Virus record (IMG/VR): IMGVR_UViG_3300033978_000217
Span: 1,818 to 65,817 of that record
Reading direction: 5' to 3' (one strand)
DNA: 64,000 nt
From: a virus
Taxonomy: Duplodnaviria > Caudoviricetes
Shown here piece by piece: positions 19,836 through 54,731 of the stretch. The notes beneath the pieces were generated by a model. The model saw nothing but the letters and a program-made list of their open reading frames with translations, was not told the origin of the DNA and did no database searches. A program made the translations under genes and the position numbers. Numbering within the stretch: the stretch's first letter is position 1; each line of letters starts with the position of its first letter.

Positions 19836-19843
19836 TATATTTG
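19836..19843 (+). promoter_or_regulatory. Bacteroidota -7 promoter element
   Basis: TTTG-TATATTTG, 17 nt before ATG19861. Confidence 0.6.
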
Positions 19844-19860
19844 TGCATACAATTTTTCAT

Positions 19861-25800: not shown

Positions 25801-28800
25801 GAGTATTTAGAGAAACACAAGTCTGAAAATTTAGCAATAGCTCAATACAACAGGACAGCCAAGTTAAGTAGTGCGTCTGGTGAAATCAAGACAGGCGTTA
25901 AGACAAAGTCTCAAATGGATGACGTTCAGCGTACAGCGCAGATGTACAACATGAACGATCAGGGATTCTTCCCAAAGAACGCTGACGAGTATAAGATCAA
26001 CAGAGACTTTGAAAGATTTGGCTTAAAGGCAAAGAGAGCAAACGCTTCTAGTTGGGGACCGGGTTCTCTCTACCTAGTTAACCAAGCAGGAAGAAAGGTT
26101 AATCCATTTAACCGACCTAAAGGTAAATCTCAGTTGTCGGATGATGAAGTTGATCAAGTTTTGAAAACATATCCTGATCTAAAAACAACTCAAATTGTAG
26201 ACGAGAATGGTAATCCTTTAATAGTTCGTCACCAAAGTCAGACAGATATTGATATTAATAATATGTCTGATAAAAACAAGGGAGGTATAAGAGACATCCT
26301 AGGTAGAGAGTCTAAAGATAAATACGGAATATATTTTACTACAGAAAGTGCAGAGTCGTTGAAAGATATGTTTGACAAGACTGGTAAGGGTAAAACATAT
26401 GAAGTGTTTTTAGATGTCAAAAATTTATTAGACTTAGGAGACACTCATTACTTTAATTTTGAAACAAACAAGCCTGAGCAACTATCAGATGCTGTTGTAA
26501 AAAATTCTGATCAATATTTAGATGTAAGAGATATGTCTAAAAATGATGTAGATAGAGTTAAAGCTTTGGGATATGATGGTATCTGGGGTAATAGAAACGA
26601 AGGTAATTATAAAGGAATAGACGAGATTGTTGTATTTGACAAATCTCAAATCAAGCCTGTTCCAACAGGAATAGTTGCCAAGTCTCAACTTTCAGATGAA
26701 GAGTCAGAGCCAAATCAAATCAGCAGTAGTGAACGTAAAATTATTGCAGATAGAGTTAAGGCTGAAATTAAAGCTGCTCTTCAAGGCCGTAAGGAAGGAA
26801 AAAAAGAGGGGATAGAACAAGCTAAAGAACAAGCTCAAAAAACTATCGACTCTTTAAACAAGAAATTAGAAGAGGGCAAGATAACTAAACAAGAGTTACA
26901 AGACAAAATTAAAGAGCTTGGATACAATGTGAGATGGCAGGCGGCTGAAGCAAGACTCGCTGGGGAAATAGAAGGTAAAAAAGCAGGTCGTGCAGAGGGT
27001 CGTAAAGAAGGTATCAAAGAGGGGGTAGAAAAGGGTAAAGAACAAGCGCAAAAGACTATCGATGCGTTGAATAAAAAACTTGAAGAAGGTAAAATAACTA
27101 AACAAGAGTTGCAAGACCGAATCAAGGAGCTTGGTTACAACATTCGATTTGAGGCAGGTGTTGCTAGACTTGCAGGAGAGAGGACTGGAAAGTCTATGGG
27201 TAAGAAGTTCGGAGAGTTTGTTGGTTACTTTAAAGGACTGAAGGCAGGAAGAACAGAACAAAGAGGTTTAGGTGCTTTGGTATCTGAATATATCAAAGAT
27301 GTAGTAGACAACGAGTTTGGTAAGAAGGGTTCTATCTCCCCTGCCACATTGAAGTCTATCTCTCGCAGAGCAGCTACCATCTCTAACCAAAAACAATTGG
27401 ATGCCTTTGTTTCTTACTTAGATAAGATCATTGCCAACAGAAGATTGGCAGAAGGAATCAATGAAATCCAAAAACAACAAAAGAAGTTGTTGAACAAGAT
27501 TGGTTATCAGTATACAACACAAATGAAGCAGTTTGCGAAGTTTGATTTGTATACAGCAGATGGTGACTTGGCTTTTGACATGAACACTTTGGAAGAATAC
27601 TTAGACGCTCTTCGTGATTTAACTAGCGATAGAGTTCCTAAGATTGGCAAGATGATGGAATTGTTTGATGAAATGTATGACATCAATCTACAGAACCAAC
27701 CTGCACCTAAGACTGCAATTGACTCACTTAATGAATGGCAAGTAGCAGTAAATAAGTTGTTTAACACCGCTAAGGATATCATCGTTGAAAACAACGGAGT
27801 AGTTGACCTAGCCGAATCGTTTCAAAACTATAGAGCGTTTAAATCTAATGTAAAGAAATACACAAACGCACTTGATGAGTTATTAGTCACAGGCATGATT
27901 AGCGAATCTGACTATGAAAGGATGTTTAATGATGTTATTGAAAAATCTGCTGTTACAGATACTTACGCTACTGAATTCCAAGACCAGATAGATGGGTTGA
28001 AGAAGATGCTGATAGACGGTATCACAGACAAAGGTGACTATGGGTTAATGGATTCAATCAAAGACTGGTTGAGCAACTCTCCTAACACATTTACGGAAAA
28101 TCAAAAGAAATTGATTGACCAGTTAATGAGAGCAAAACCTGATAATTTGATGACGTTAAGTCTTGAAGACCTTGACTTGTTAAATCAAGTTACTGCTCAA
28201 ATTGCAGAGGCTGGATTTGTTGACGAGAAGAATTTAAGAACCTTGTTGGATCGTGCAGAAATCAGAGGCAACGAGATCGGAAAGAGTTTGGCTGAACAGG
28301 CTAAACAAACAAAAGGCTTGTTTAGAAAAGATAGATACTCTAACGCTAAGAACGGATTCATCAACATGATGAATGACACCTTAGGAAAGAGTGTTGTATT
28401 CTGGGAGTCTCGTCTAGGAATGAAAGAGAACGGTCCGTTTAGAAAGCATTTAGTAGACCCAATCGTAAGGGCAATTAATGGATGGGAGAAAGACTCTCAA
28501 CGAATTCTAAAGGACTACCAAAAGAATGTTGAGAAACTTAGAAGCCGAAACATTTTAAAGAATGTTCCGGGTATTGGTAAGTTTATCAACAAAACTAAAA
28601 TTGAAAAGTTCAAACTAACCTCTGACGGAAATTTAGTGCCTGACGGAACAATTAAAGTTTCAAAAGACGCTTATGACAGAGTAATGATTGGAGTTGTTGG
28701 CCACATCCTTGACAACGCTTGGAACGCCAAACAGAAAAAGAAAACTGTAAGCGACTGGTTAGGTAAGCAGATGCTTAGTGCTAAGGTGAGAAACAACATG

Positions 28801-31377
28801 GCTAACGAAGACGTTAACGAGTTGGATATTGTTAACAACATCTACAACGACCTTAAAGATTCATTCCCTGACGGAAATGGAGGCCTTGACCACATGGCAG
28901 TTTTAGAAGCGTTTGAATCTGATCCAACTTCTGTCCTTACAGGTAGTCAGTTGGAGTATTATAACATTGCAAGAAGCACTTTACAGGAGGCTGGTGAGTA
29001 CATCAATAGTGCTAACGCAATTAGAAACAAGCAGCACGAGTTGAATCCTTACTATATGCCTAGGCAGTCTGTAGGAGTAAGAGAAGGCACTCTAACATCT
29101 ACGGATATTGCGTACAATAAAAATGTGGGTGAGGCAATAAGATCAGGGGCGTCTTACCAACGTGTGTTGCAAGTTCCTACAGAGGCAATTCGTTATAACG
29201 TAGACAGGCTTGTGATGACCAATGTTCATGAAGGTTTGAGAGACTACTATTTGACTGAGGCTAAAAGATATGTGAGAGATGTATTCTCTAACGCTAAAGA
29301 AAACGCTAGTCAAAACGATGCGGTTATGTTAGACAACTTAAAGCAGTTGAGTGACACTATTGCTCCGTTTGCTTTAGCAAAGTCTGAAAACACATTTGGA
29401 TTGTCAAAAATGATGGGTAAGTTCTTTGTTGACGCTTTGATAGGTGTTGTAAGAACTCCAATAGAATTTACTACTAACCTTATCAGTTATGCGGTAGGTA
29501 ATAGAAGTTTAAAGTCTTTGACATTGCCTTTCACTCCAAAAGAAAAACAAGAGACAGATAAATTATTGTCTGAGTTTGATTCTTCAGTTCAGTTTACAGG
29601 ATTGGAAAGAAAAGTTAAACTTAGTGGCAAGAAAGGTATTGACGGATACTTGGACAGAGAAAGTAACTTCGGTTTGCTCAACAAGTTCCTCAACAACGTA
29701 ACTGGGTTTATGAGAAAAGGGGAATGGAAGTCTCAGTTCGAAAGAGAGTTTGAAAGAAATACTGGAGAGAAGTTTAGTTACGAGAAACATTTCGTAAAAG
29801 AAAAAGGAAAGTATTACGATGAAATGAGCAAAGCTGCTTCGGATGCTGACTTCAGAATGAGAAGAATTATGAAGGGTGGTAACAAAGCAGAGCAAAGACA
29901 ATTCATTGAATGGTTTCCTTTTGTAAAGTCCGCAAGAATTTCTGCCGACTCTAAAATGGCACCGTTTGTAGGTATGTTCTCTGGATTTATTAACCACGAT
30001 GCTGACAATCTTAACATCGGTTTAAGAAAGACTGTTACTCAAAAAGAAATAAAGGATGGTTTAACTCAAGCGTTAGGTGCTTACGGAAGGTTGTCTTTAT
30101 ACCCTGTGTTGATGGTTATAGGAAAGGCTATTGCTAATTTAAACTTGGGTGACGATGATGAGAAGAAAGAGGCTCAAGAAACATTAGACTCATTGAAGAC
30201 ACCTCAAGGTTGGTCAGACATGGCTTTGTTTGCCGCTAAACAAGTTGGGGCAACATTTTTTGGAGGTAAGTATGCGGCAGGTGGTAAGATTATAGGAAAC
30301 CTACTATTAGACGCTGCCTATACTTTAAGTGATGACAGAAGACAGAGAAGACTAATAGAAGACACAATGAGAGATTTATACTTTGTAGATCCGATTGACT
30401 TTTATGACTTACCTTCTGAAAAGGATGACATGGCTTTGCAAATAGCTGCTAATCTTCAACCTATCGTGGGGATGGTCATTGACGGTGTTTCTGACTTTGT
30501 TAACGATGTCAAGAACAAAGGCAGAGAGCAAGTTACTCTTTATGACATCTACGAGTGGACTCAACAAACTGAGGAGGGTAAGCAATGGATGTACATGGCA
30601 AATTCTTTAGCTACATTAGGTCAAACTCTAACAGTCATATTTACACCCGGAGCAGTACCTTTTATTGATGACTATGTTCGTTGGGCAGAAGATGAGTTGT
30701 CTCAAAAAGAGCCAAATGAAAACACTCTATACAAAACTCCTGGTGGTGAAGTAGTAGACATAAGAGAACTATTTTTAGATGACAGCCAAAGACTGCCTAT
30801 TAATACTCCTGGGATAAGCTCAAGAGAGAGAGATAAGTATTCTATATTGGCAACTGAAAAGTTTAACAAGGCAATTGAAAAGGAAGGAAAACAAATAAAA
30901 GGCTTATTCCCTGACGAAAAGTATTTGTACATAGACTATCTCGCAGACAAGGCTAAATACGAGGCTGGTTCTGAACTAGGATTTCCGACTGAAAGATGGA
31001 GTGAGGCTGAAGGGGAAATGGTTTCAGGAGAACCTATTCCACCAAGTGAGAGAGATAACACGCCAGAAAGTGAGGTGACGTTAGAAAAACTTCATCAGGA
31101 AATTATGAAAGGAAAACAACTTAGCTTTGTTCAAAACATCAAAGAGAAGAGAAAAGCCGAAGACTATATGTTCAAGGAGTTTGATAAAAATCCGAACATG
31201 GAGAACGACTATAAAAACGCTACTATTGGTGGAAAGTTAGGTGTGAGAGAGTACTTCAAGGCAAAATACTTATACGACAAATACAAATTAACCGAACCTC
31301 CTGTTTCATCTAACTACTTTATAAAAGAAAAAGGTCAAATAAAACAGGTTGAAAGTACGCCAACAGAAGAAAATTAA
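19861..31377 (+). CDS. Giant polyvalent-type virion/ejection protein with zincin metallopeptidase and ADP-ribosyltransferase-like domains
   Basis: About 3840 aa. HEVAH (24325-24339) with downstream EEYLAE. VRH..GIYFT..YEVFLD..GYDGI..EIVVFDKSQIK (about 26190-26660) fits the ART-PolyVal pattern. Confidence 0.7.
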   Translation: MANLQDLFNEIQADSRISNPPTFEEFQSKMEDPAFAERVNEILGRNGYDVNAYEGLKKKEESMVESAPLSQSESEQPSETTEPTQMGGIEPVGEVVSEDPQAETEEDLDPLNADLSAYNLEIKTPLSLNQNAPIQAAPQQQNVTEGSVMNESLDTPKPVNKYKNNDIISLAKNAKNKFISKHIDPIFSQAKQATAQFDQEIKPEEEAISQVEEGGPGDPKRKDVKDAATSLYNEMDDLNYKTASRVLGDTRVLGVKMDGDNYEVVFANNKMGGGDQGRSYKGKVGDVTWEGYISNAINSSDLYKDDESWEDLKSAVITQDTYSPELEGKKLSPSFNNNLASHKSKYFPQGSFGQITGTVTIPKEKNKEEEASFGTDLKRFFEKVKVKVKTQNIISKEDEERKEYNIAEETIPKTEYVMDTEQTFYNSLNNTPETNAIMQENALSFSDILLPSSKNKETVMEGIKLFLAKAGYDENEINQKLGVIYKQMLRDARYHAAEQYIRHEIENGNKTYKFQDIDRLNQAKEKGIDELMGDESLVTQSDKNFVSNVWDISLSDYINHYDAKATVRGRNMDIKNIPGKVSAYTARMNELEAQIEAEKVKLQIPSKEQLSETVKGLKSTKDKIDAYDAQLSKMEEDMNSLLVDQDGQKYYKDEASKTIYEELVAQSEKILNERNALVEQNKAGSQDIEKVNQFQNNISRQLKEYEALRKKLNYYDDDPDLLAMRGLSNTLTSIQNYESDKSAGIKNDLYDFQDYREKVRQDDEIARKEAEDDNMLEAGGKGLVGGFANALIGISKTGMYLGQVLTDEDSDQKEWTGGDELLAATSQLQENVGQWASNPYYEKWGVNWFVNGVGGVVPDLAAVYFTGGGAGFAELATTRGAIGAVGKIATSPTTVYFTVRSTGDYAERLQKAGYSAGEAFLGGGLIAGTEAMLESLLPSFFNTTESISIKSFWKKTIEEGIAKKLAPEVIARQLKEGTIGIARNSGKLITTNTFNEKIEEGTQTLFTEVAFAGATDETIQIFDPKTGGMGKTLEAVTEASAIGGAMGLVGSSAKGIRTLIKEKANNTTLKLTQLQIGRKYTEIINEADRLSKDFKGSEVEKEYEKINKEYKKLSANPNFLEYDDLAQSEVLDKSLALNDLKEAQKNYESQNIVDVKLNNQIAEKEKELVSIINTAQENTDVRNDMNKQLEEIGVKSFTLNANGEVNGITFDEWTTSEEEKESTEKAIEIIEKVYKPKAQENAVQKSSATEVLPRQQGETTETGGKREGVGSSVQGQGTTQEVGKEEIVATPKEAKEPEAMQTDIDQVQQSTGTVINLNEDGTLTINAPQRGGQSKKAAAIENAKQELANLGYNVESRVAQPTQQEVAQEEGQREFTDEEFGNTIKETEGMGVVAGTQSMNDLQKRTAQDPKKGKIVAQASRAVNALKSLFPNMNIVVHESDESYNKAMNTLGGTVNTRGQFVYKPSADGNIQGAVHINLNRANSRTIAHEVAHAALLKMFKGDGKVFGNFKDKLKDIAKDQKMTITDKDGNEVETTWGDEAEKLSSRYQTEDQAEEYLAELAGLVAELDLDKPVNKSILQKIADFINNFILSNPQLKALGVKPISDTSSAEEVLEFFDTLGKKISRGEEIKEFEDVNSLGLSGVVNVSEGVKSKSSIDSGEIKRFPVNPNTRVEEDVPLERFNGKRVNLMESDRMTGGYISDSEGNPLFKFYGGVFYPIITGKWWASRNKIKAKGIAENANKNRDKDGYIYSAPMIGSDKQHMSNTDMLTVTVELMKFDANSKTSKVKKADVISYIDKAFSNKSVQGKKAVVKTVLKKSNNINELFNELEFVLFQEGDKILDKKGSPILDENKKPISNFTFEERLAIVNSILGDPKVKEARFPSAGSISEAAKRFEEPITAKANKIGDLVTIMRTKGTLQYKTSEVNDDFYHKSYPEEIYAVNEDGSPAEIEVYVLEGAYSMNDVLPSLTQSSGKEFTWDEYLEKHKSENLAIAQYNRTAKLSSASGEIKTGVKTKSQMDDVQRTAQMYNMNDQGFFPKNADEYKINRDFERFGLKAKRANASSWGPGSLYLVNQAGRKVNPFNRPKGKSQLSDDEVDQVLKTYPDLKTTQIVDENGNPLIVRHQSQTDIDINNMSDKNKGGIRDILGRESKDKYGIYFTTESAESLKDMFDKTGKGKTYEVFLDVKNLLDLGDTHYFNFETNKPEQLSDAVVKNSDQYLDVRDMSKNDVDRVKALGYDGIWGNRNEGNYKGIDEIVVFDKSQIKPVPTGIVAKSQLSDEESEPNQISSSERKIIADRVKAEIKAALQGRKEGKKEGIEQAKEQAQKTIDSLNKKLEEGKITKQELQDKIKELGYNVRWQAAEARLAGEIEGKKAGRAEGRKEGIKEGVEKGKEQAQKTIDALNKKLEEGKITKQELQDRIKELGYNIRFEAGVARLAGERTGKSMGKKFGEFVGYFKGLKAGRTEQRGLGALVSEYIKDVVDNEFGKKGSISPATLKSISRRAATISNQKQLDAFVSYLDKIIANRRLAEGINEIQKQQKKLLNKIGYQYTTQMKQFAKFDLYTADGDLAFDMNTLEEYLDALRDLTSDRVPKIGKMMELFDEMYDINLQNQPAPKTAIDSLNEWQVAVNKLFNTAKDIIVENNGVVDLAESFQNYRAFKSNVKKYTNALDELLVTGMISESDYERMFNDVIEKSAVTDTYATEFQDQIDGLKKMLIDGITDKGDYGLMDSIKDWLSNSPNTFTENQKKLIDQLMRAKPDNLMTLSLEDLDLLNQVTAQIAEAGFVDEKNLRTLLDRAEIRGNEIGKSLAEQAKQTKGLFRKDRYSNAKNGFINMMNDTLGKSVVFWESRLGMKENGPFRKHLVDPIVRAINGWEKDSQRILKDYQKNVEKLRSRNILKNVPGIGKFINKTKIEKFKLTSDGNLVPDGTIKVSKDAYDRVMIGVVGHILDNAWNAKQKKKTVSDWLGKQMLSAKVRNNMANEDVNELDIVNNIYNDLKDSFPDGNGGLDHMAVLEAFESDPTSVLTGSQLEYYNIARSTLQEAGEYINSANAIRNKQHELNPYYMPRQSVGVREGTLTSTDIAYNKNVGEAIRSGASYQRVLQVPTEAIRYNVDRLVMTNVHEGLRDYYLTEAKRYVRDVFSNAKENASQNDAVMLDNLKQLSDTIAPFALAKSENTFGLSKMMGKFFVDALIGVVRTPIEFTTNLISYAVGNRSLKSLTLPFTPKEKQETDKLLSEFDSSVQFTGLERKVKLSGKKGIDGYLDRESNFGLLNKFLNNVTGFMRKGEWKSQFEREFERNTGEKFSYEKHFVKEKGKYYDEMSKAASDADFRMRRIMKGGNKAEQRQFIEWFPFVKSARISADSKMAPFVGMFSGFINHDADNLNIGLRKTVTQKEIKDGLTQALGAYGRLSLYPVLMVIGKAIANLNLGDDDEKKEAQETLDSLKTPQGWSDMALFAAKQVGATFFGGKYAAGGKIIGNLLLDAAYTLSDDRRQRRLIEDTMRDLYFVDPIDFYDLPSEKDDMALQIAANLQPIVGMVIDGVSDFVNDVKNKGREQVTLYDIYEWTQQTEEGKQWMYMANSLATLGQTLTVIFTPGAVPFIDDYVRWAEDELSQKEPNENTLYKTPGGEVVDIRELFLDDSQRLPINTPGISSRERDKYSILATEKFNKAIEKEGKQIKGLFPDEKYLYIDYLADKAKYEAGSELGFPTERWSEAEGEMVSGEPIPPSERDNTPESEVTLEKLHQEIMKGKQLSFVQNIKEKRKAEDYMFKEFDKNPNMENDYKNATIGGKLGVREYFKAKYLYDKYKLTEPPVSSNYFIKEKGQIKQVESTPTEEN
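23582..23722 (+). CDS. Nested out-of-frame small basic protein (46 aa)
   Basis: MPYKSQAQQKFFHANKAKLQRQGVNVKEWDQASKGKVLPKKLGKKK* in the +1 frame of the giant gene, with an A-rich leader. Confidence 0.7.
   Translation: MPYKSQAQQKFFHANKAKLQRQGVNVKEWDQASKGKVLPKKLGKKK
26785..27210 (+). repeat. Tandem 213-nt (71-aa) duplication inside the giant gene
   Basis: GRKEG..KEQAQKTID.LNKKLEEGKITKQELQD.IKELGYN..ARLAGE occurs twice, starting at 26785 and 26998. Confidence 0.85.
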
Positions 31378-34284: not shown

Positions 34285-37104
34285 ATGCCAATTACTAATA
34301 ACCTTAAAAAGCAAATTGACCAGCCTGTATGGGAGTGGTCTAGGTTTGCTTTAACTACCTTTAACTCTCCAGCATCAGGTTTTGCTACAGCAATAGATGG
34401 CTCAAATAGATATATCTATTATCAATACCCTGGTACCTTGCAAAGATATGATACTTGGAGTGATACTTGGGCATCTTTAGCAGCCCCAGCATATTACACT
34501 ACAGCTACAATAGCTTCAATGGTTTATTGTAAATCTCAAGGAAATAGAGGTAGAGTATTAGCAGCCCCAACAAGTTCTACATTAACAATCCCTTCTCTTA
34601 TTTCTGGCGCTAAATTAGTTGGACAGAAAATCAGAATTGTATCAGGTGTAGGATCAGAACAAACTAGAACCATTACCGCATCTACTGATCCTGTAACTGT
34701 AGAGTCTGGAGTTAACATAGGATCAAGTTCTGCTACTATTCTTCAAGACACTACAAAAAGATGGCAAGTAAATCAATGGGTTGGTTACACAGTTAGAATT
34801 TCTTATGGTACAAACTTTTCTTTTCAAAGAACAGTAATATTTAATACTGTAGATAGTTTGTATTTTTCAGACATAAACTTACAACAATATGAGCCATGGG
34901 ATAACCAAGGATTTATTTCCTCTCTTTCAGGTACGTTTTCAACTTATGAAATATCATCTCAAACTGTAACTGTAGACACTCCTTTTGTTACAACTCCTAC
35001 TACAGATAGTAGATTTATGATAATGTCTGGAGTTATATGGTTGATGTCTTCACAAACAACTTCTGGATTTACATGGCAAATGTATGATGTACTTACAGAT
35101 GTGTGGTATCAAAAGTCAATGCCTTCTACTATATTTAGTGGTGCTGTGGGTACAGAGATAGCTCTTACCCCAATCGATGAAGTAGAAGCTGCGTATATTT
35201 CTAGTACTGCAACATCTGCTACAAATAGAAGACTTACAGACACGACTCAAATGATGGTTAACGATCAATACCGCAACTATCAAATCAGATTAACAGGCGG
35301 CACAGGAGCAGGACAAAGAAGAAGAATTACATCTAATATAGACAGAACATTTGAAGTAGATTCTAAATGGACAGTAACTCCAGACGCTACAACGACTTAT
35401 GAAATATGGCCTAATACAGACTACATTTATTTTGTTGGTAATGCTAATGCTGCAACCTTTGCTTATGACATGGAATCAGATGTATGGGTAACTGGTCCAA
35501 GTAGTGATGCTTCTGTTGCTACAAATGCTTCTATAACTAAAGTTGGAGATATACCATTAGGTATTGCTTCAGCAGCGGATAATGGAACAGGGTCTGTACT
35601 AACCGTTGCTGTAAATGCAGTAGGGTCTGGATATGCGGTTAATGATATTATTGCAGTATCTGGAGGAGCCGCAAACTGCCGTCTTTATATTACATCAACT
35701 ACTACAGCAGGTGGTGTTACAGGAGTGGCATTTAAAAATAATGGATCAGGGTATGCTACAGCAACTGGATCAGTAACTTCAATAGTTTCAGGATCTGGGT
35801 CAGGATGCACAATTAACATAACTGCTATTGGAAGAACAGGTTTGGTTACAACTACTATAAATCATTTTCTTAAAAGAGGAGATTCTGTAACTATAGCAGG
35901 ATCTTCAGTAGCAGGATGGAATGGCACTTACACAATTTTAAGTGTTGATACTAATCTTACATTTACAATTGCTAGTACAGCTACAGCAACTCTTAATGCT
36001 ACATCAGCAAATAGTACAACTTTAGTAGTAGATTCTACAAAATCTTGGGATGTAAACGAACACCTAGGGAAGTTCTTAATGATTATGCAAGGTGGTAGTA
36101 TTACTCCTAACCAACAAATAAGAAGAATTACTTCTAATACAGCAACGACTATTACAATCCCAGCTTTTACATCTTTTACCCCTACTAGTGGAACAACTCG
36201 TTATGTAATTATAGATCCTTCTAGTTTTGGGAGAGATAATAAATTCTGGGCAGATGATCAATTAGCCTACGGATATCCAACAAGTGGAACTACAACTTCT
36301 ATTACAGACACAACTAAGAACTGGATTAGAGGAACATGGGTAGGTCACGTTGTAAGAATCATGGCAGGAACAGGACTTGGAAATGAACTCGTAATTACGG
36401 CAAATAATAATAACACCATTACATTTGCTGCCGCTACATTTACTCCAGATACTACTACTCGTTATGCAATAATGGATAGTTTTGGGACAGCAACTTCAGG
36501 TTCTACAACTACTCTCGTAGACACTGGAAAGAACTGGGTTACTAACCAATGGGTAGGTAAACGTGTTAGGTTTGTTGGAGGAGCATCTGCTTCTAACGAA
36601 GTTACTATAACATCTAATACGGCTACAACACTAAACTTTGCTGCAACTACTGCAACCGATGCTACTACCAATTATGTTATTTACGGTCCTCCTGCAAGAG
36701 GTGCTGGGGCTAACGTCAAATGGACGTGGGGTAATGGAAATCATAAATATTTATTTGCCCCAATTGGTGGGGGTAGTTTAGGGGTAAGTAAATTTGATAT
36801 TACAACAGGTAGATGGGATAGCTATTATCAAAACTCTGGGCAAGGTGAAACTTTCACTACAGGATCTATGTGGGCATACGATGGTGCAGATAGAGTTTAT
36901 GTTCAAAAAGATCAAACAGGACGTATTTTTTATTTTGATATTGTTAAAAGAGAAATGGTAAACTCTGGTACTGTGCCTTACGGTATGTCAACAGCATTTG
37001 TAGGAAATAGAATGGAGATAATTAAGACAGAAGATGGTCTCAAATATCTTTACGTTGCAAGACATAACGGAACTGAAATGTGGAGAACATTAATATTTTG
37101 GTAA
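34285..37104 (+). CDS. Repeat-rich fibre/receptor-binding-like virion protein
   Basis: Thr-rich, with about six repeats of DT.K.W..NQW.G..VRI..GTG..R.I.SN and propeller-like termini. Confidence 0.6.
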   Translation: MPITNNLKKQIDQPVWEWSRFALTTFNSPASGFATAIDGSNRYIYYQYPGTLQRYDTWSDTWASLAAPAYYTTATIASMVYCKSQGNRGRVLAAPTSSTLTIPSLISGAKLVGQKIRIVSGVGSEQTRTITASTDPVTVESGVNIGSSSATILQDTTKRWQVNQWVGYTVRISYGTNFSFQRTVIFNTVDSLYFSDINLQQYEPWDNQGFISSLSGTFSTYEISSQTVTVDTPFVTTPTTDSRFMIMSGVIWLMSSQTTSGFTWQMYDVLTDVWYQKSMPSTIFSGAVGTEIALTPIDEVEAAYISSTATSATNRRLTDTTQMMVNDQYRNYQIRLTGGTGAGQRRRITSNIDRTFEVDSKWTVTPDATTTYEIWPNTDYIYFVGNANAATFAYDMESDVWVTGPSSDASVATNASITKVGDIPLGIASAADNGTGSVLTVAVNAVGSGYAVNDIIAVSGGAANCRLYITSTTTAGGVTGVAFKNNGSGYATATGSVTSIVSGSGSGCTINITAIGRTGLVTTTINHFLKRGDSVTIAGSSVAGWNGTYTILSVDTNLTFTIASTATATLNATSANSTTLVVDSTKSWDVNEHLGKFLMIMQGGSITPNQQIRRITSNTATTITIPAFTSFTPTSGTTRYVIIDPSSFGRDNKFWADDQLAYGYPTSGTTTSITDTTKNWIRGTWVGHVVRIMAGTGLGNELVITANNNNTITFAAATFTPDTTTRYAIMDSFGTATSGSTTTLVDTGKNWVTNQWVGKRVRFVGGASASNEVTITSNTATTLNFAATTATDATTNYVIYGPPARGAGANVKWTWGNGNHKYLFAPIGGGSLGVSKFDITTGRWDSYYQNSGQGETFTTGSMWAYDGADRVYVQKDQTGRIFYFDIVKREMVNSGTVPYGMSTAFVGNRMEIIKTEDGLKYLYVARHNGTEMWRTLIFW

Positions 37105-37838: not shown

Positions 37839-37866
37839 GTAACAAATTTAGGTGTATATTTGTTAC
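37839..37866. promoter_or_regulatory. Back-to-back divergent -7 elements
   Basis: GTAACAAATTTA-GGTG-TATATTTGTTAC, with TAnnTTTG on each strand 4-5 nt from an ATG. Confidence 0.6.
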
Positions 37867-38157
37867 ATGAGAAATTCTTTAGCAGGAACTAAAAAAGGCA
37901 AATCAGAGAGTGCCAAATACTTTCAGTCTAATCCAAAGGCGAAGGCTAAGAAAGATGCGTATAACAAGGAGTATCATTCTACTCCCGAGAGACGGAAGTA
38001 TCGTTCAGAACTGAACAAAGAGAACCGAAAGGCTGGAACTTACGGCAACAAGGATGGCAAAGACATGAGCCATACGAAATTAGGTAAAGTTGTCAAAGAA
38101 ATATTTTCAAAAAATAGAGCTAGAAACGGAAAAGGCGGTACTCCACGTTTGAAGTAA
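37867..38157 (+). CDS. Small basic protein with a degenerate HNH-like motif
   Basis: K/R-rich; DGKDMSH..NRARNG. Confidence 0.6.
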   Translation: MRNSLAGTKKGKSESAKYFQSNPKAKAKKDAYNKEYHSTPERRKYRSELNKENRKAGTYGNKDGKDMSHTKLGKVVKEIFSKNRARNGKGGTPRLK

Positions 38158-47900: not shown

Positions 47901-48332
47901 TTATTTGTTTAGTGAATGAAATTCGATTGTCTCAATTAGGTATTCTCTCTCGTCCTCTCTCACATATTCCCAATCTCCGTTACCATTGTCGAAGGACTCG
48001 CATATTTCAGCAAGTTGACCAATTGAAGTCACTTCTCCCCAACACCATCCGCAATCGAATGCGTAATGTCTCTCTCCGTTAACATCGAAGTAAACACCAC
48101 TACTGATAACTACCTTCTCCCCATCGTACATCTCATACAATACACCATCCTCGAACGATAGGATTGATTCCGAGTCTTCGTTTTGGAACATCCAATCTTG
48201 GTCGAATATCTTCTTAATCGTTGTCTCGCTGAAGTAAGGGACTGACCATCCGTTCCAATACATATTTGAACTATAACCTACGAAGGTGAAGTCGGTGTTT
48301 CCACCATCAATTGAAAATACTGCTTTTTTCAT
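47901..48332 (-). CDS. Acidic early protein
   Basis: YWNGWSVPYF..GWCW; AGACAATG start. Confidence 0.65.
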   Translation of the reverse strand: MKKAVFSIDGGNTDFTFVGYSSNMYWNGWSVPYFSETTIKKIFDQDWMFQNEDSESILSFEDGVLYEMYDGEKVVISSGVYFDVNGERHYAFDCGWCWGEVTSIGQLAEICESFDNGNGDWEYVREDEREYLIETIEFHSLNK

Positions 48333-48410
48333 TGTCTTAAATTGTTAAATTATTAGTGTTTACGCATTCCCCAGGAAAAGCGCATTTTGAAATTTTTGAT
48401 TGTCTTTTCT

Positions 48411-48569
48411 TTACTTTTTCAGTCTTACGATTAAGATGATTGCTGATGCAAGGAACACAACGAATGCTCCAAAACACAAGTAAACATTTTGTAGGCACAT
48501 TGAGATTAAGATGACAAGTGTGCTATAAATCATTAAGAAGAATAGAACGATTTCGATTTTTTTAAGCAT
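48411..48569 (-). CDS. Small two-TM membrane protein, first gene of the early operon (52 aa, absent from the ORF track)
   Basis: MLKKIEIVLFFLMIYSTLVILISMCLQNVYLCFGAFVVFLASAIILIVRLKK*. Confidence 0.6.
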   Translation of the reverse strand: MLKKIEIVLFFLMIYSTLVILISMCLQNVYLCFGAFVVFLASAIILIVRLKK

Positions 48570-48590
48570 TTGATTTATGTATTAAGTTTA

Positions 48591-48652
48591 GCAGAATGTG
48601 TAGACTCGAACTACACGATGCATATTGTATATACACCTCTCCAAGCATTCTA
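48591..48652 (-). ncRNA. tRNA-like element lacking a D-arm
   Basis: Acceptor-like stem TAGAATG/CATTCTG, T-arm TGTAG-TTCGAGT-CTACA and a 9-bp middle stem. Confidence 0.5.
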
Positions 48653-49219
48653 GAATGTGTTAGTGTTACGTCAACAAAGGCATACTTTCCATATGTTATT
48701 CCCTTGGTTCTCGCTGATGCGATTCAATCTATGATGTCAAAGAACTACGGACTTTATACGCTTTTCCGTTATGTGCGTCCCAACTTTACAACTTTCACTT
48801 CCTCTATTAAGTTTTTACTCCGTTCGTATATTCTACTCGTTGTACTCAAGGATGTTGGTTTCGCCTCTTACTATTAATATCAGTTTGAATATTGCTCTCT
48901 ATAATTCACGCGATAGATATTCCCATATGTATGCGCTTATAACTATTCAGTTGCGGAGCAAAACCAATCTTTCAATTTTCGTAATTCCCGTTGGAATCGG
49001 ATACAAACATCGTTATAATTTTTAGATGAAATTCACATAATTGCAACAAATTTCATCATTCTTGGAATCCTAAAGGTAAAAGCCTGAAAATTAGCATTTT
49101 AACCCACAAAAAAAAGTGTGCATTTTGACTGTCGGAGTGCATTTTCAAAGGAAATTGACCATATGAAAGGCATAAAAAGGATTTAGGATGCACCATAAAT
49201 TCTCCGCTTATTTGATGTG

Positions 49220-49880
49220 AAATTGTGCTGAATGAATTGTTGGTTGAATTGTGCCTATATGAAATGTTGCTGACCTTTCGACAAATGCCTTGTGTGAGTT
49301 ACGAACATAGTTACTAACAACGGAAGCGGAGATGGTGCTAGTTAAATTGAGGGACATATGCAATAGGTTTGCTGAATAGTTACTAACAAAGTTATTCACA
49401 TATAATATTACGGCACGACTGCTGACCTTACGCGATTCGTGACGGCAGTAGAGCAACGATATTGTGCTGACCATAGTAAACCATCACTATTCGAATTGCG
49501 TTGAATTTTGCCTATTGTATGGAAGCGAGGGAAGGAATCGAATTGCTGAAAGCCTGATCGATTAGGTTTCGCCTGGCGGGTGGGGTCGCAAATCCTGATC
49601 TCCTGATCGGCCCGGTGGTGGGATCATGGTTGGTAAACCCCCTTCCGCTAACATCTCGCCCCCTTTTAGTTTTGGATTGGGTTATCCCTTGATTCCCTTT
49701 TTACGGTTATATAAAGATACGAAATGTATTGTAAAGATTATAATAATATGGGCCGAAATGCGGTTTGTCCACCGTTGAGTATCCCTATTTTGCTGAGTTT
49801 GTAATTTTTGGAATGGGGGGGGGTGGTGTCGCAAAATGCGTTTCGTGCATAATGCTGATCAGGTTGTGGGGACCAGGTCT
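49220..49880. repeat. Non-coding repeat/GC-rich region (candidate genome end, pac or origin)
   Basis: Seven TGCTGA, two TAGTTACTAACAA, five GATC, G-runs and an A-tract/T-tract at the point where transcription diverges. Confidence 0.5.
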
Positions 49881-49976
49881 AAAAAAAATTTTTTTTCTGG
49901 AGTGTCGACTATGTGTCTACAGTTGGGTAGTGGTACTAACCAGTTGGTTTTATATATTTGTAAAAAAAATATAGTC

Positions 49977-50333
49977 GTGAAAACAAACAAGAACAAAAAC
50001 GCTCGTATGGAGAAGAGGGCAGATCGTTTGACTGCTAAGGCTAACAAGATCACTGGCAAGGGGTCTACCACGCTTAACCTGGTTTCTGGTAACAAGAGTG
50101 CCACTATTAAAACTTCTGCTAACACTAAGAAGTCTGACCGTTTACTTAACCGCGCTAGTGTGTTGAGGGGGAAGGCTATCTCAGACCCTCTTGAGAAGGC
50201 GAGATATATTTCAAACTTACCAGAGGGTACTTTGAAGAAGAAGTTGACTAAGCAAGGTCCTATAGACAAGATTCATGCTAGAAGGGTTGTGAAGAAGTTT
50301 AACAACTCTCCCATTGGTCCTATAAAGCGTTAA
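49977..50333 (+). CDS. Small Lys/Arg-rich protein
   Basis: GTG start 16 nt after TATATTTG (49953). Confidence 0.6.
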   Translation: MKTNKNKNARMEKRADRLTAKANKITGKGSTTLNLVSGNKSATIKTSANTKKSDRLLNRASVLRGKAISDPLEKARYISNLPEGTLKKKLTKQGPIDKIHARRVVKKFNNSPIGPIKR

Positions 50334-50336
50334 GTC

Positions 50337-50652
50337 GGCTACAGATTGTAACCACCTTGATGGTGTCAACAAAATGGTCTTAATTCGGAAAACTTCCGAG
50401 TTTGGCCATGTTTTGTTACGGAGTTTGGCAAGGGGTTGGGGATTATTTTCCACGATAAGCCTTATTCTGGTGACAATTATCCACATTAGTTTGTCTCAAA
50501 AGTTTACTATAATTGCGACAGATGTGGTTTATAACATCTAACTCATATTAAAGTGTGGGATCTCTGAACGTAAGGCTATATTTTGACTTTAATGACTGAG
50601 GAGTCATACTATAACGTGACTTATGTGTCACAATTTTTCGAGTTTTTGTGAC
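50337..50652. promoter_or_regulatory. Array of different imperfect palindromes plus a DnaA box
   Basis: About a dozen abutting inverted repeats between convergent genes; TTATCCACA at 50477. Confidence 0.5.
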
Positions 50653-50666
50653 TTGTAAGGGACTTT

Positions 50667-51143
50667 TTATTTCTTTCTACTCGCCTTGACTCTTTTCTTG
50701 TCTGCCTTGAACTGTTCGGACTGGGTGTAGAGCTTACCAGCCTTCTTGTCCTCTCGGTACATTTTGTTAGCAGACTTCTTTGCGTCACCTTCCTTCCACT
50801 TCTTTCCGTAGGCGAACTTCTCTGCTCTCTTGGCTGACTTGAATCCGACTACCTCTCCTCTCTTCAATGCCTCATCGTATGCCTCTTGAGGTTTATCCTC
50901 AAGGTTAGTCCATGTCTTCCCACCATTGTTAGGGAAGATGGTTGGGTTTACTTCGTATGGTCTCTTTCTGTTTCCTGTTTCTCCAGAGGAGAGGAGGACA
51001 GTTGAGGAAGGTCCTTGTGCGTTCTTCATGGGAGTAACCCCTTTTCTCATGTCTCTGAGTGCCTTTACCTTGCGAGAGACGATGAGTCCATCCTTGGTTT
51101 TCGGTTTCTTCGGTCCTGGGTTGAAGTAGTCTTGTGCTTTCAT
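50667..51143 (-). CDS. Basic protein
   Basis: 158 aa, K-rich termini, core PTIFP..AYDEA..GEV..F..AEKFA.G.WK. Confidence 0.65.
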   Translation of the reverse strand: MKAQDYFNPGPKKPKTKDGLIVSRKVKALRDMRKGVTPMKNAQGPSSTVLLSSGETGNRKRPYEVNPTIFPNNGGKTWTNLEDKPQEAYDEALKRGEVVGFKSAKRAEKFAYGKKWKEGDAKKSANKMYREDKKAGKLYTQSEQFKADKKRVKASRKK

Positions 51144-51155
51144 GTTGTAAATATA

Positions 51156-51180
51156 AAAAAAAAAGCCTCTTGCGAGGCTT
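51156..51180 (-). terminator. Intrinsic terminator
   Basis: Minus strand AAGCCTC-GCAA-GAGGC followed by a long T-run. Confidence 0.75.
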
Positions 51181-51199
51181 ATTCATTGCGAAGTATTTT

Positions 51200-51595
51200 T
51201 TAGAAAGAGTTAGTTCCTTTTCTAGCTTCTCTTCTTACTGCACGAGCAAACTTCATCCCATTTCCAGTAGCCTTTGCACTTTGAACTTTTTCAGTGTCAT
51301 ATTTTTTAGGGTTTCTGTTATATTCTTTTAAAGCTTGACTTACCTTCTCATTTTTCTTCATGGCAATTTTAGAGTTCCCAAGTTTTCTATCTACCTTGTT
51401 CTCTAGCATTTTACCTGCAAGTGATCCGCGATCTTTAAATGATTTTTTTTCAGATATTACTCCACCGCTTTTAGAGTATACTGTACGAGTTTTAGATACC
51501 GCCTCATTTCCTGAAGCGTTTCTGTTTACTACTACTTTTCTACCTAAAACGTTTTTTCTTGATGTGGTAGTTTCTCTTTTAACTTTGATGCCCAT
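51200..51595 (-). CDS. Lys/Arg-rich protein (RKNxLGR family)
   Basis: Start MGIKVK; promoter TTTGTATATTTG at 51627-51638 on the minus strand. Confidence 0.65.
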   Translation of the reverse strand: MGIKVKRETTTSRKNVLGRKVVVNRNASGNEAVSKTRTVYSKSGGVISEKKSFKDRGSLAGKMLENKVDRKLGNSKIAMKKNEKVSQALKEYNRNPKKYDTEKVQSAKATGNGMKFARAVRREARKGTNSF

Positions 51596-51641
51596 GGTTG
51601 TTTTGTATTTTATTATTAATAATACACAAATATACAAATCA

Positions 51642-51842
51642 TCACTTGTCTCCCAAAATTTCTTTGAGTTGAGAGAAGATATCTGTCTGCGCCTGTCCCC
51701 AGAAGAAATCGCAAGTTCCGTCCTCCTTGATTGGAGGCTTTTCAAAGTAGGCTTGAGCGTACTCATTAATCGGTGCTGTAAATCTATGGCACTTCTCTTT
51801 GTGGGGACAATTTGTCCCTTCGCACATTGTTATATCACTCAT
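51642..51842 (-). CDS. Small Cys-rich protein
   Basis: MSDITMCEGTNCPHKEKCHRF..CDFFW. Confidence 0.65.
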   Translation of the reverse strand: MSDITMCEGTNCPHKEKCHRFTAPINEYAQAYFEKPPIKEDGTCDFFWGQAQTDIFSQLKEILGDK

Positions 51843-52233
51843 CTCCAAATTTTTGTTTAATTTCATAGTTGTCACCCTCATCACATTTCTCACACATGGC
51901 AAGTTGATTATTGCCACACGAGTCGAATCCAAACTTACACTCCAACCCACTTTGTTTTGTTTCTGAGTGGAATACCCGGAGTCCCCACATTAGGTTATAC
52001 ATCGCTGCTGATCTTCTTGCGTACTCTTTGGAGAGTCCCTTCTCCTTTTGGAAGAGGTCTACCATCCAGTCCATCCATTGCTGTTCCTGTTCGGGAGTCA
52101 TGTCCCAGTCGTAATACCATTGGTCCTTACGTCCGAGTACATCCTCGTAGGTTACGTTGTGTCCTGCTATCGAGAACATCTTGTCTACTATTTCCTTGAT
52201 GATTTCCTGATCGGTCTTTCTCTTGCGTCTCAT
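51835..52233 (-). CDS. Hypothetical protein
   Basis: 132 aa with C-terminal Cys pairs. Confidence 0.6.
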   Translation of the reverse strand: MRRKRKTDQEIIKEIVDKMFSIAGHNVTYEDVLGRKDQWYYDWDMTPEQEQQWMDWMVDLFQKEKGLSKEYARRSAAMYNLMWGLRVFHSETKQSGLECKFGFDSCGNNQLAMCEKCDEGDNYEIKQKFGDE

Positions 52234-52451
52234 TATTCAAATGTATTTGTGTAGTATTCCTCAAATTGCTTCTCGAAGATCTTTTTTAGGCGAGGGACTT
52301 TAGTCACATGAGCGAGGTACAGGTCCTTCATCTCCTGCTTATGCATCTCCCTTACCTCCTTGAGTACTGCGTTCCACTCCCACTTATCTCTTGGGCATTC
52401 CCATAGTATTTCGAAGAGGATATCTACCGAGGTTTGCTTCTTGTTACTCAT
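52233..52451 (-). CDS. Hypothetical protein
   Basis: KQTSV..EMHKQE..EEYYTNTF pattern. Confidence 0.6.
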   Translation of the reverse strand: MSNKKQTSVDILFEILWECPRDKWEWNAVLKEVREMHKQEMKDLYLAHVTKVPRLKKIFEKQFEEYYTNTFE

Positions 52452-52693
52452 CTGATTTTATCTCTCATCCATTTAGCACCTTCTATAAACCCAAATCTTT
52501 TTGAATCATTAAGAAATGTTTCCAAAGCAACATCATCTATCTCCTCATCCGTTGGTAGTTCTATTGGGGTTAGAGAAGCAATGAAGTCATCATAAAATAT
52601 AGGTTTATAGTCTTCATTATCTAATGCTAAAGCATCTATATAAGCAGTAGTCCACGCTTTCATAATTTGCTCTTCTGTGTATAGCTTACTCAT
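52448..52693 (-). CDS. Hypothetical protein
   Basis: LPTDEEI..GFIEGAKWMR. Confidence 0.6.
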   Translation of the reverse strand: MSKLYTEEQIMKAWTTAYIDALALDNEDYKPIFYDDFIASLTPIELPTDEEIDDVALETFLNDSKRFGFIEGAKWMRDKIR

Positions 52694-54307: not shown

Positions 54308-54459
54308 AAAAACAGATGCTTAAAAGAAAAGATGGTAGTGTGTCCCCAAGAGGACTTTGGGACAACATTCGTGCTAACAAAGGATCAGGCAAGAAGCCTA
54401 CTGCCGCTATGTTAAAACAGGAGAGGGTTATTAAGTCTCAAACCAAAAAGAAAAAGTAA
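54304..54459 (+). CDS. Small basic protein (51 aa, absent from the ORF track)
   Basis: MKKQMLKRKDGSVSPRGLWDNIRANKGSGKKPT..*; coupled on both sides. Confidence 0.7.
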   Translation: MKKQMLKRKDGSVSPRGLWDNIRANKGSGKKPTAAMLKQERVIKSQTKKKK

Positions 54460-54731
54460 TGGCTAAGACACCAGCGTGGACTCGAAAGGAAGGCAAAGAC
54501 CCGAAGGGTGGCCTCAACAAAAAGGGGGTGGCCTCTTATAGAGCCGCTAATCCCGGATCTAAGTTACAGACCGCTGTGACTACCAAACCATCTAAACTAA
54601 AACCAGGTAGTAAGGACGCTAATAGACGCAAGTCTTTTTGCGCTAGAATGTCGGGTATGCCAGGTCCAATGAAGGACGAAAAAGGTAGACCGACAAGAAA
54701 AGCACTTTCTCTAAAAAAGTGGAACTGTTAA
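54459..54731 (+). CDS. Basic phage protein (DUF6321-like)
   Basis: AWTRKEGK.PKGGLN..RRKSFCARM..ALSLKKWNC. Confidence 0.7.
   Translation: MAKTPAWTRKEGKDPKGGLNKKGVASYRAANPGSKLQTAVTTKPSKLKPGSKDANRRKSFCARMSGMPGPMKDEKGRPTRKALSLKKWNC

Follow-up and report, generated by a model that had tools for sequence, protein, structure and literature searches.

A conserved noncoding array of palindromic units and direct repeats in two groups of tailed phages

Palindromic DNA outside genes has been described from bacteria as well as from their phages. The mosaics of repetitive extragenic palindromes and bacterial interspersed mosaic elements (REP/BIME) of bacteria are present tens to hundreds of times in a genome, and the promoter-early stem-loop (PeSL) cassettes of T4-type phages consist of one hairpin unit present in many copies per genome. 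The subject of the present work is a row of different palindromes and direct repeats at positions 50337–50666 of a 64,000-nucleotide stretch (the window) that makes up most of an IMG/VR phage record of 65,817 bases. The closest described case would appear to be the untranslated regions in the left terminal repeat of phage T5. These regions are free of open reading frames (ORFs) and better conserved than the neighbouring ORFs, they hold direct and inverted repeats, together with palindromes, in the same order, with eight DnaA boxes at fixed helical spacing, an HNH gene divides them in some phages, and a role as injection stop signal is only proposed (Davison, 2020, bioRxiv 10.1101/866236).

The palindromes in the window were first pointed out in an earlier note, which described them as a dense array of unrelated operator-like palindromes between convergent genes and proposed that they act as decoys for regulators of the host and its defence islands. 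All nine motifs that it listed (twelve strings) are present where it placed them, the array does lie between the stop of a + strand gene (50007–50333) and the stop of a - strand gene (50667–51143), and every listed motif turned out to be a conserved unit that recurs in other phages, so that the description as an array of distinct operator-like palindromic units is borne out. Judged by sequence comparison, the 330-bp gap between the two genes is the copy, in the window phage, of a 'module train' that is conserved, present once per genome and free of ORFs, and the array marks a functional element. It is tentatively proposed that this element is a cis-acting double-stranded DNA (dsDNA) control region which works with host factors beside early-type genes.

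Conservation and distribution of the element

The 158-aa protein encoded next to the array, used as first query, gave 12 loci, and a search of IMG/VR with the pattern of the two direct repeats (F1-N18-F2) gave 41 exact matches on contigs of 7–122 kb, representing 33 distinct contexts; further copies were added with TCGG-N7-CCGA (unit H) and the J-K unit as anchors. The pooled matches comprise 51 distinct sequences, 39 of which hold the repeat pair. In full the element is ORF-free, about 300–650 bp long and composed of about a dozen short units, which on the - strand of the window follow one another in the order E12, A, B, (C, D), E13, F1, F2, G, H, (I, L), J, K, the bracketed units being missing from the window, whose copy holds the other ten (Table 1). 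Ten of all the units are palindromes with sequence-conserved arms and two are 13-bp direct repeats placed 31 bp, i.e., three helical turns, apart. Unit order and orientation are colinear in 37 of the 39 distinct versions, and the two that differ do so through short motif matches that are probably due to chance; shuffling of the motif content between relatives, for which the earlier note had suggested looking, was not seen. F1 and F2 are 31 bp apart in every copy anchored on these repeats, and among the copies to which unit H led there is a single exception (30 bp). The element is found at one locus per genome in 16 of 16 genomes or records that carry it, and it is present in all seven loci found via the 158-aa protein at an identity of at least 78%, a sample chosen without reference to the element. 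In L002–L004 the region is 87% identical overall to that of the window.

This conservation across phages, and not the statistics of the window, is the stronger evidence that the array is real, as far as sequence comparison can tell. The density of palindromes, which the earlier note had proposed to compare with shuffled controls, does exceed that of shuffles, but the excess is modest and unconvincing alone. When an inverted repeat is defined as perfect, with an arm of at least 5 and a spacer of up to 15, there are 10 in 50337–50666 against 4.7 ± 2.2 in 1000 dinucleotide shuffles, and at least 10 are reached by 2.1% of the shuffles and by 5.7% of 386 tiles of the same length from the window. 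Nor are the motifs entirely unrelated; they are largely distinct, but GTCACAA-N12-TTGTGAC and TGTCTCAA-N13-TTGCGACA represent the same palindrome type in two versions.

The element is common to two groups of phages. By whole-genome comparison G001, G011, and G014 (64–68 kb) are relatives of the window phage (the 65-kb family), while the large phages with the element have genomes of 114–122 kb, and a comparison of G006, G007, and G009 (114–120 kb) with the window found no terminase, portal, capsid or replication protein in common at E ≤ 1e-4. Between the two groups the element is 80–88% identical over 110–190 nt. Its presence in groups that have no core genes in common is an argument that it depends on host factors and not on a phage-specific initiator or terminase. 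A phage-specific origin or packaging (pac) site is likewise unlikely, since the large phages with the element lack the initiator, the primase-helicase, and the terminase of the window. A mobile repeat, either a miniature inverted-repeat transposable element (MITE) or an interspersed repeat of the REP/BIME type, was rejected because there is one copy per genome. G004, considered as a family member without the element, was rejected as well, being a distant phage with a terminase 34% identical.

The window and the large phages have accessory genes in common, i.e., those for an endolysin-like protein (52% identity), a tail fibre, a DUF6321 protein and a 101-aa basic protein, along with a few small ORFs. 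The DUF6321 protein (window 54459–54731) is 98% identical to its copy in G006, the 939-aa tail-fibre-like protein (window 34285–37104) is 75% identical to that of G009, and the 101-aa basic protein (window 37852–38157) is 72–74% identical in G006, G007, and G009, where its gene lies 0.65–2.2 kb from the element. Identities of this order look like recent gene flow between the phage groups, probably on one host, and it is probable that the two groups infect the same host and exchange DNA.

The earlier note held that the units are copies of operators of host or defence-island regulators, carried for titration of these regulators. Several properties of the element agree with this: there are many different palindromes with sequence-conserved arms, each unit may be present or missing by itself, as would be the case for accessory functions, the location beside early-type genes fits, and F1 resembles a host DnaA site. 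Nevertheless, it is very unlikely that the element is such a decoy. Two motifs were tested for host counterparts in bacterial genomes or arrays and none was found: the repeat pair occurs in 1 of 185,579 species genomes, and there on a 10.8-kb contig of a metagenome-assembled genome whose neighbour genes are those of the large phages, and the J-K unit is single in 19 of 19 metagenome loci. Furthermore, the unit order is fixed and not shuffled, a single copy in each genome is a low number for titration, at any rate until replication has taken place, and the likeness to coding sequences of DinD, Bro-N, and RhuM, to which the note had appealed, could not be confirmed (see below).

Unit presence varies singly between genomes. 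In contigs of two wastewater RNA-type libraries a variant without 50434–50552 (F2, F1, E13, and B) was observed, in which 50433 is joined to 50553 via six other letters. A blastn search for distant matches of 48500–52500 gave none in the INPHARED phage collection. The position of the element relative to contig ends was also considered. In 15 of 41 contigs its distance from a contig end is no more than 3 kb; 9.8 such contigs would be expected, and the difference is not significant (Kolmogorov–Smirnov p = 0.17). The near-complete linear contigs of G011 and G014 (L221, L229) both start no more than about 1 kb upstream of the small zinc-finger-like gene located ahead of the element, and this shared start could be a physical genome end or an assembly break at sequence shared by phages. 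Three related records labelled as having direct terminal repeats ('DTR') have end overlaps of just 122–127 bp, which are assembly overlaps, and such records are therefore to be read as circular assemblies, which do not fix the physical ends.

Table 1. Units of the element and adjoining features, in the direction of the - strand of the window
Feature	Position in window	Strand	Description
158-aa basic protein gene	50667–51143	-	Upstream of the element in the window; downstream in L005–L008
E12	50627–50652	-	Palindrome GTCACAA-N12-TTGTGAC; first unit past the stop of the 158-aa gene; relatives with arm variants GTAACAA/TTGTTAC
Small palindrome	50616–50631	-	GTGAC-N6-GTCAC; overlaps right arm of E12; equivalent in L060/L062 is GTACC-TGATAA-GGTAC
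Unit A	50592–50618	-	Near-palindrome CACGTTATAGTATG (50605–50618; general type CACAYTATARTGTG), then hairpin ATGACT-N4-AGTCAT (50592–50607)
Conserved tail of unit A	50572–50589	-	Reads AAGTCAAAATATAGCCTT on the - strand; common to L031, L032, L034, L042, L045, L088
Unit B	50520–50547	-	TATGAGTTAGATGT and palindrome AGATGT-N8-ACATCT; 8-nt spacer inverted in the window relative to other genomes
Unit C	not in window	-	TGTCCG-N7-CGGACA
Unit D	not in window	-	CAGTA-N-TACTG
E13	50492–50520	-	Imperfect palindrome TGTCGCAA-N13-TTGAGACA; conserved core TATAGTAAACTTTTG
F1 direct repeat	50472–50484	-	GTGGATAATTGTC; reverse complement contains TTATCCACA
F2 direct repeat	50441–50453	-	GTGGAAAATAATC; 31 bp past F1
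Units G and H	50382–50429	-	GCCAAACTCCGTAACAAAAC, then AACTCGG-N7-CCGAATT; arms TCGG/CCGA invariant
Unit I	not in window	-	TGCATG-N17-CATGCA
Unit L	not in window	-	Between I and J in the unit order
Units J and K	50337–50378	-	ACCATTTTGTTGACACCATCAAGGTGGT and GGTTACAATCTGTAGCC; J is ACCAT-N18-ATGGT, K is GGTTAG-N5-CTAACC
Inserted cassette	49953–50333	+	Promoter-like box TATATTTG (49953–49960) and 108-aa basic protein gene (50007–50333)
ORF-free region	48570–49952	-	About 1.4 kb; 72–81% nucleotide identity in the 65-kb family

Double-stranded DNA sites or folded RNA

Most units combine invariant arms with variable spacers, the opposite of the usual RNA pattern. The spacer of unit B reads GGTTTATA in 11 instances and its reverse complement TATAAACC in 12, with the arms unchanged, and the spacer of E13, whose pattern across versions is of the type TGTCGCAA-N13-TTGCGACA, is forward in 21 copies, inverted in 3 and of another kind in 5. 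In L044 and L048 the core of E13 is kept without the left arm. Exactly reverse-complemented loops of B and E13 (window 50520–50539 and 50492–50520), i.e., flip-flop inversions, were seen in comparison with L024, L054, and L033. Invariant arms combined with flipped loops fit sites in dsDNA, or DNA prone to hairpin-mediated flipping, better than they fit a folded RNA.

The pairing statistics point in the same direction. In a strict tally of eleven hairpins, which took in only distinct pairs of arms, each arm with no more than one change, there were 335 Watson-Crick pairs, 41 non-wobble mismatches, 19 G.U and 12 A.C (p = 0.28), and neither strand is favoured. RNAalifold applied to twelve versions of unit A gave -1.1 kcal/mol, four pairs and no compensatory changes. 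Covariation supporting a single RNA fold had been named in the earlier note as an observation that would overturn it, and on this point the note held up: there is no consensus fold and no wobble-strand bias, loops are inverted between genomes, and DNA fits better. Rfam gave no match at gathering score in the window and only two chance-level matches at E ≤ 5 in 48300–50700, both of them outside 50337–50666, and a scan of the window for tRNA and tmRNA found nothing relevant.

It is nevertheless conceivable that the array is transcribed and that the - strand RNA, made either by read-through from the operon upstream, as its tail, or as a leader to the genes downstream, forms hairpins which serve as sites of RNA processing or stability, as antitermination signals, or as a trans-acting or decoy RNA early in infection. 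The orientation of the element is fixed relative to flanking same-strand genes in both phage groups, as would be expected of a transcript, and both strands of 50337–50666 fold better than shuffles (z-scores of -3.7 and -3.2). The pairing of ATGACT with AGTCAT is kept through G.U changes at two columns (7 one-sided, none broken), and a looser tally, in which doubtful matches are included, has 75 G.U against 47 A.C. Contigs from four RNA-type runs cover parts of 49708–51180 in relatives; these cover the coding genes equally, however, and may reflect carry-over of DNA. The strict tally is without wobble bias, non-wobble mismatches being the commonest, and genes on the opposite strand can stand between the element and those downstream of it. 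Together with the absence of an Rfam match in the gap, of a consensus fold and of compensatory pairs in unit A, and with stems that are invariant while loops vary and are inverted in two units, this makes a transcribed hairpin array unlikely.

A coding function was rejected, as several homologues have in-frame stops in the J unit and 1-nt length differences after F2. The earlier note had pointed to a likeness of some palindromes to ones embedded in the coding sequences of DNA-binding genes of the DinD, Bro-N, and RhuM types, but the 67-codon + strand frame in question is without Pfam match at E ≤ 10, and the 1-nt indels between homologues exclude coding. Some repeats of the clustered regularly interspaced short palindromic repeat (CRISPR) systems begin with GTTG and end with CAAC, as does the 37-mer of J and K. 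A mimic of such a repeat was rejected, because a degenerate pattern of this 37-mer, the only unit so examined, led to the 19 metagenome loci mentioned above, all with a single copy and no array. The TATAGT core of unit A was considered as a repeated phage promoter and rejected, since this core, like unit A as a whole, occurs once per genome. A scan for sigma-70 promoters and terminators gave counts equal to those of shuffles, this promoter type being probably unsuited to the host.

The direct repeats and the surrounding locus

The DnaA box that the earlier note had marked is indeed a DnaA-like 9-mer, which in the window reads TTATCCACA as the reverse complement of F1, but it belongs to a 13-bp direct repeat on the - strand with a partner in F2, the general form of both being GTGGAAAATAATC. 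In the 39 versions F1 is represented by TTTTCCACA (22), TTATCCACA (4), TTTTCCACT (9), and TTTTCCACG (4), and 26 of these fit the relaxed DnaA consensus TTWTNCACA. F2 fits the same consensus in 3 versions, deviates by one mismatch in 33 and by two in 3. Boxes with at most one mismatch number 5.1 on average within ±450 bp of the repeats compared to 2.1–2.7 per 900 bp genome-wide; two of the 5.1 are F1 and F2 themselves, and there is thus no wider cluster of DnaA boxes. From its sequence, binding of DnaA by F1 is a fair hypothesis.

The two DnaA-type boxes, a neighbouring GC cluster and an A8T8 tract after K could together make up a portable origin, dependent on host DnaA or primed by transcription, that is exchanged among the phages of one host. 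Such an origin would be in line with the fit of F1 to the consensus, the direct orientation of the boxes at 31 bp, the single copy, the independence of the element from phage-specific replication proteins and the A/T tract after K or after the inserted gene. On the other hand F2 seldom fits the consensus and no further boxes are enriched, variants without F1 and F2 exist, and the window phage itself encodes an initiator-like protein and a primase-helicase, genes for which are missing in the large phages with the element. The cumulative GC skew has no global extremum at the element and tracks gene orientation. A portable origin is therefore regarded as improbable.

The location of the element differs between the phage groups. 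The usual order in the 65-kb family begins with a small zinc-finger-like gene, which is followed by the element, then by a conserved region free of ORFs and by small genes. The large phages have the element in the intergenic space between divergent genes, with a GroES-like gene, a basic protein gene, and tail genes pointing one way and the element pointing oppositely into a series of small early-type genes. The noncoding locus of the window measures about 2.3 kb (48.3–50.7 kb), the gap being its upstream part, and no ORF was found in it under table 11, TAG=Q or table 4. The ORF-free region further downstream has low conservation of RNA structure (structure conservation index of 0.24–0.60). A perfect A8T8 tract (49875–49890) is located at its start, and a similar A-run/T-run follows unit K in L006, L030, L046, and L060.

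The 108-aa gene, of which homologues are found in just 3 loci, is inserted between unit K and the ORF-free region, and in L025 unit K continues directly into the homologue of window 49942–49817. The array lies in a gap between convergent genes because this gene was inserted into the larger noncoding region of about 2.3 kb. The convergence, from which it had been argued that no promoter is needed between two 3' ends, is accordingly an accident of gene insertion limited to the window lineage, and the argument is based on that accident. In L005–L008 window 49893–50666 is missing at the equivalent position, where the 158-aa gene abuts the homologue of window ~49892, and a homologue of the gap is instead held ~0.5–1 kb upstream, between two same-strand genes and just ahead of a host-type promoter. 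The basic-protein gene pair follows the element in L005–L008 and precedes it in the window lineage. Around the element the window encodes a cluster of three proteins that are small, very basic and of low complexity (51200–51595, 50667–51143, and 50007–50333); they are without Pfam or PHROG match, and their positions differ among relatives.

Other genes have been inserted within the element or beside it. A gene for a GIY-YIG homing-type endonuclease is found between units A and B in L030, L033, and L041 of the 65-kb family and in the equivalent upstream part of the element in L024, a 114-kb phage. The protein has a C-terminal helix-turn-helix (HTH), its gene has a TTTG/TAnnTTTG promoter of its own and is located about 120–800 nt upstream of the repeat pair, and the amino acid identity is 70% between the phage groups and 77–93% within the 65-kb group. 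In other genomes HNH genes, or an HTH gene together with a gene for a 263-aa protein, are found downstream, at unit borders. By this pattern of insertions the element is a marker of a hotspot where homing endonuclease genes and small cassettes appear to move between unrelated phages.

The element may be selfish or hitch-hiking DNA, a patch of homology which serves as landing site for homing endonuclease genes and cassettes and has little function for the phage. The presence of the same GIY-YIG gene with its own promoter in both groups, the insertion of the HNH genes, of the HTH gene with the 263-aa gene and of the 108-aa gene at unit borders, and the passage of other genes between the groups (DUF6321, tail fibre) are all in keeping with this. 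It is, however, difficult to reconcile with the retention of the element in all seven relatives found without reference to it, with the absence of an endonuclease gene from most copies (6 of 34 contexts have one), and with the maintenance of fine structure, i.e., the 31-bp spacing and the invariant arms, in very different contexts. Little weight is therefore given to selfish DNA as an explanation.

The host, the proposed role and known systems

The gene content of the window is that of a tailed phage, with terminase, portal, SU10-like capsid protein, RecT, exonuclease, C5 methylase, primase-helicase, and initiator-like protein. A 3,844-aa ORF (19843–31377) is without PHROG match at E ≤ 1e-5 and has 26% identity to its counterparts in G011 and G014. 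The motif TTTG-N17-21-TAnnTTTG is found at several operon starts (10 sites in the window), e.g., immediately upstream of 51595, 63740, and 37174, and start codons are without Shine-Dalgarno motifs. Signals of the TTTG/TAnnTTTG type are presumably Bacteroidota promoters, and from the promoter type and the missing Shine-Dalgarno motifs the host is probably a member of the Bacteroidota. Public sequencing runs that contain the phage sequence are in the main lake-water metagenomes, and there are lake DNA runs with 0.8–1.0 of its words.

A cis-acting dsDNA control region would work as follows. The units would form a row of binding sites for dimeric DNA-binding proteins, with F1 and F2 possibly serving host DnaA, and the element would act in cis with host factors, and not phage-specific ones, where the replication/early block borders on the following block of small genes. 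It would control early transcription, DNA entry or initiation assisted by DnaA, in the way that has been suggested for T5 and its untranslated repeat regions. The binding of proteins to the units, the identity of the binders and the effect of binding are all matters that we infer.

Several observations weigh against a control region of this kind. A search for a binding protein that accompanies the element in both phage groups found none: the proteins common to the two groups are without match to a DNA-binding family. Since some variants lack single units, F1 and F2 included, no unit is indispensable. The F repeats are conserved over 13 nt, which is beyond the 9-nt DnaA box, the ninth position of the box deviates in 13 of 39 copies of F1 and in 36 of 39 copies of F2, and boxes are not in excess beyond these two. 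The fixed orientation is not required of dsDNA sites and would be expected of a transcribed element, and the compensatory arm variants GTCACAA/TTGTGAC, GTCGCAA/TTGCGAC, and GTAACAA/TTGTTAC also fit selection for a hairpin. The better folding of both strands, the tolerance of the ATGACT hairpin for G.U changes only, and the coverage of relatives by contigs from RNA-type runs, all described above, belong on the same side. A cis-acting dsDNA region is for these reasons favoured with reservation.

It is tempting to speculate further that the element is a portable 'host-interface' module, in which a dozen hairpin or operator units and a pair of DnaA-type boxes, relying on host factors only, are exchanged by unrelated phages of one lake bacterium and act at the start of infection. 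The module would, for example, capture host DnaA and other DNA-binding proteins and in this way gate DNA entry, start replication or blunt host responses. As a specific proposal this is rather doubtful, but if true it would represent an exchangeable cis-acting cassette of a kind not described for phages.

Conserved noncoding DNA of phages is poorly charted because annotation pipelines see genes only. A fine structure that is maintained in at least 39 versions and in two unrelated groups, in one copy, beside early-type genes and absent from bacterial genomes, points to a function tied to the shared host and not to the machinery of any single phage. If the units do bind host proteins, the element would allow a study of the way in which phages gain control of uncultured freshwater hosts, probably Bacteroidota, when infection begins.

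A narrow full-text search found no description of the element in the literature, which is not proof that it is unpublished, and a comparison is accordingly made with systems that resemble it in part. Like the REP/BIME mosaics it is a mosaic of short palindromic units and conserved boxes in set order, with units in either orientation and symmetric stems; unlike them it is present once per phage genome, and its repeat pair is limited among species genomes to the single phage-like contig. With the PeSL cassettes it has in common short conserved noncoding hairpin units that border small early-gene cassettes in a plastic region and a link to cassette exchange, but it is single copy and composed of about a dozen different units, none of which matches the host promoter consensus. 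A 154–157 bp noncoding element of a eukaryotic virus is similar in being single copy and conserved, with strictly placed clusters of conserved nucleotides, but there is no sequence relation and no demonstrated common mechanism. The T5 regions differ from the element by the lack of any sequence similarity and by eight DnaA boxes compared to two box-like repeats; the element is furthermore common to two phage groups without common core genes. The likenesses are extensive, however. Both are ORF-free, are found beside early-type genes, extend over several hundred bp to more than 1 kb and are better conserved than the neighbouring ORFs, and both have ordered repeats and palindromes across relatives (colinear here in 37 of 39 versions), box-like sites at fixed helical spacing and, in some genomes, an inserted homing-type endonuclease gene that splits them. 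If this resemblance extends to function, the element may provide a second, independent case in which the ideas on the T5 repeat regions can be tested.

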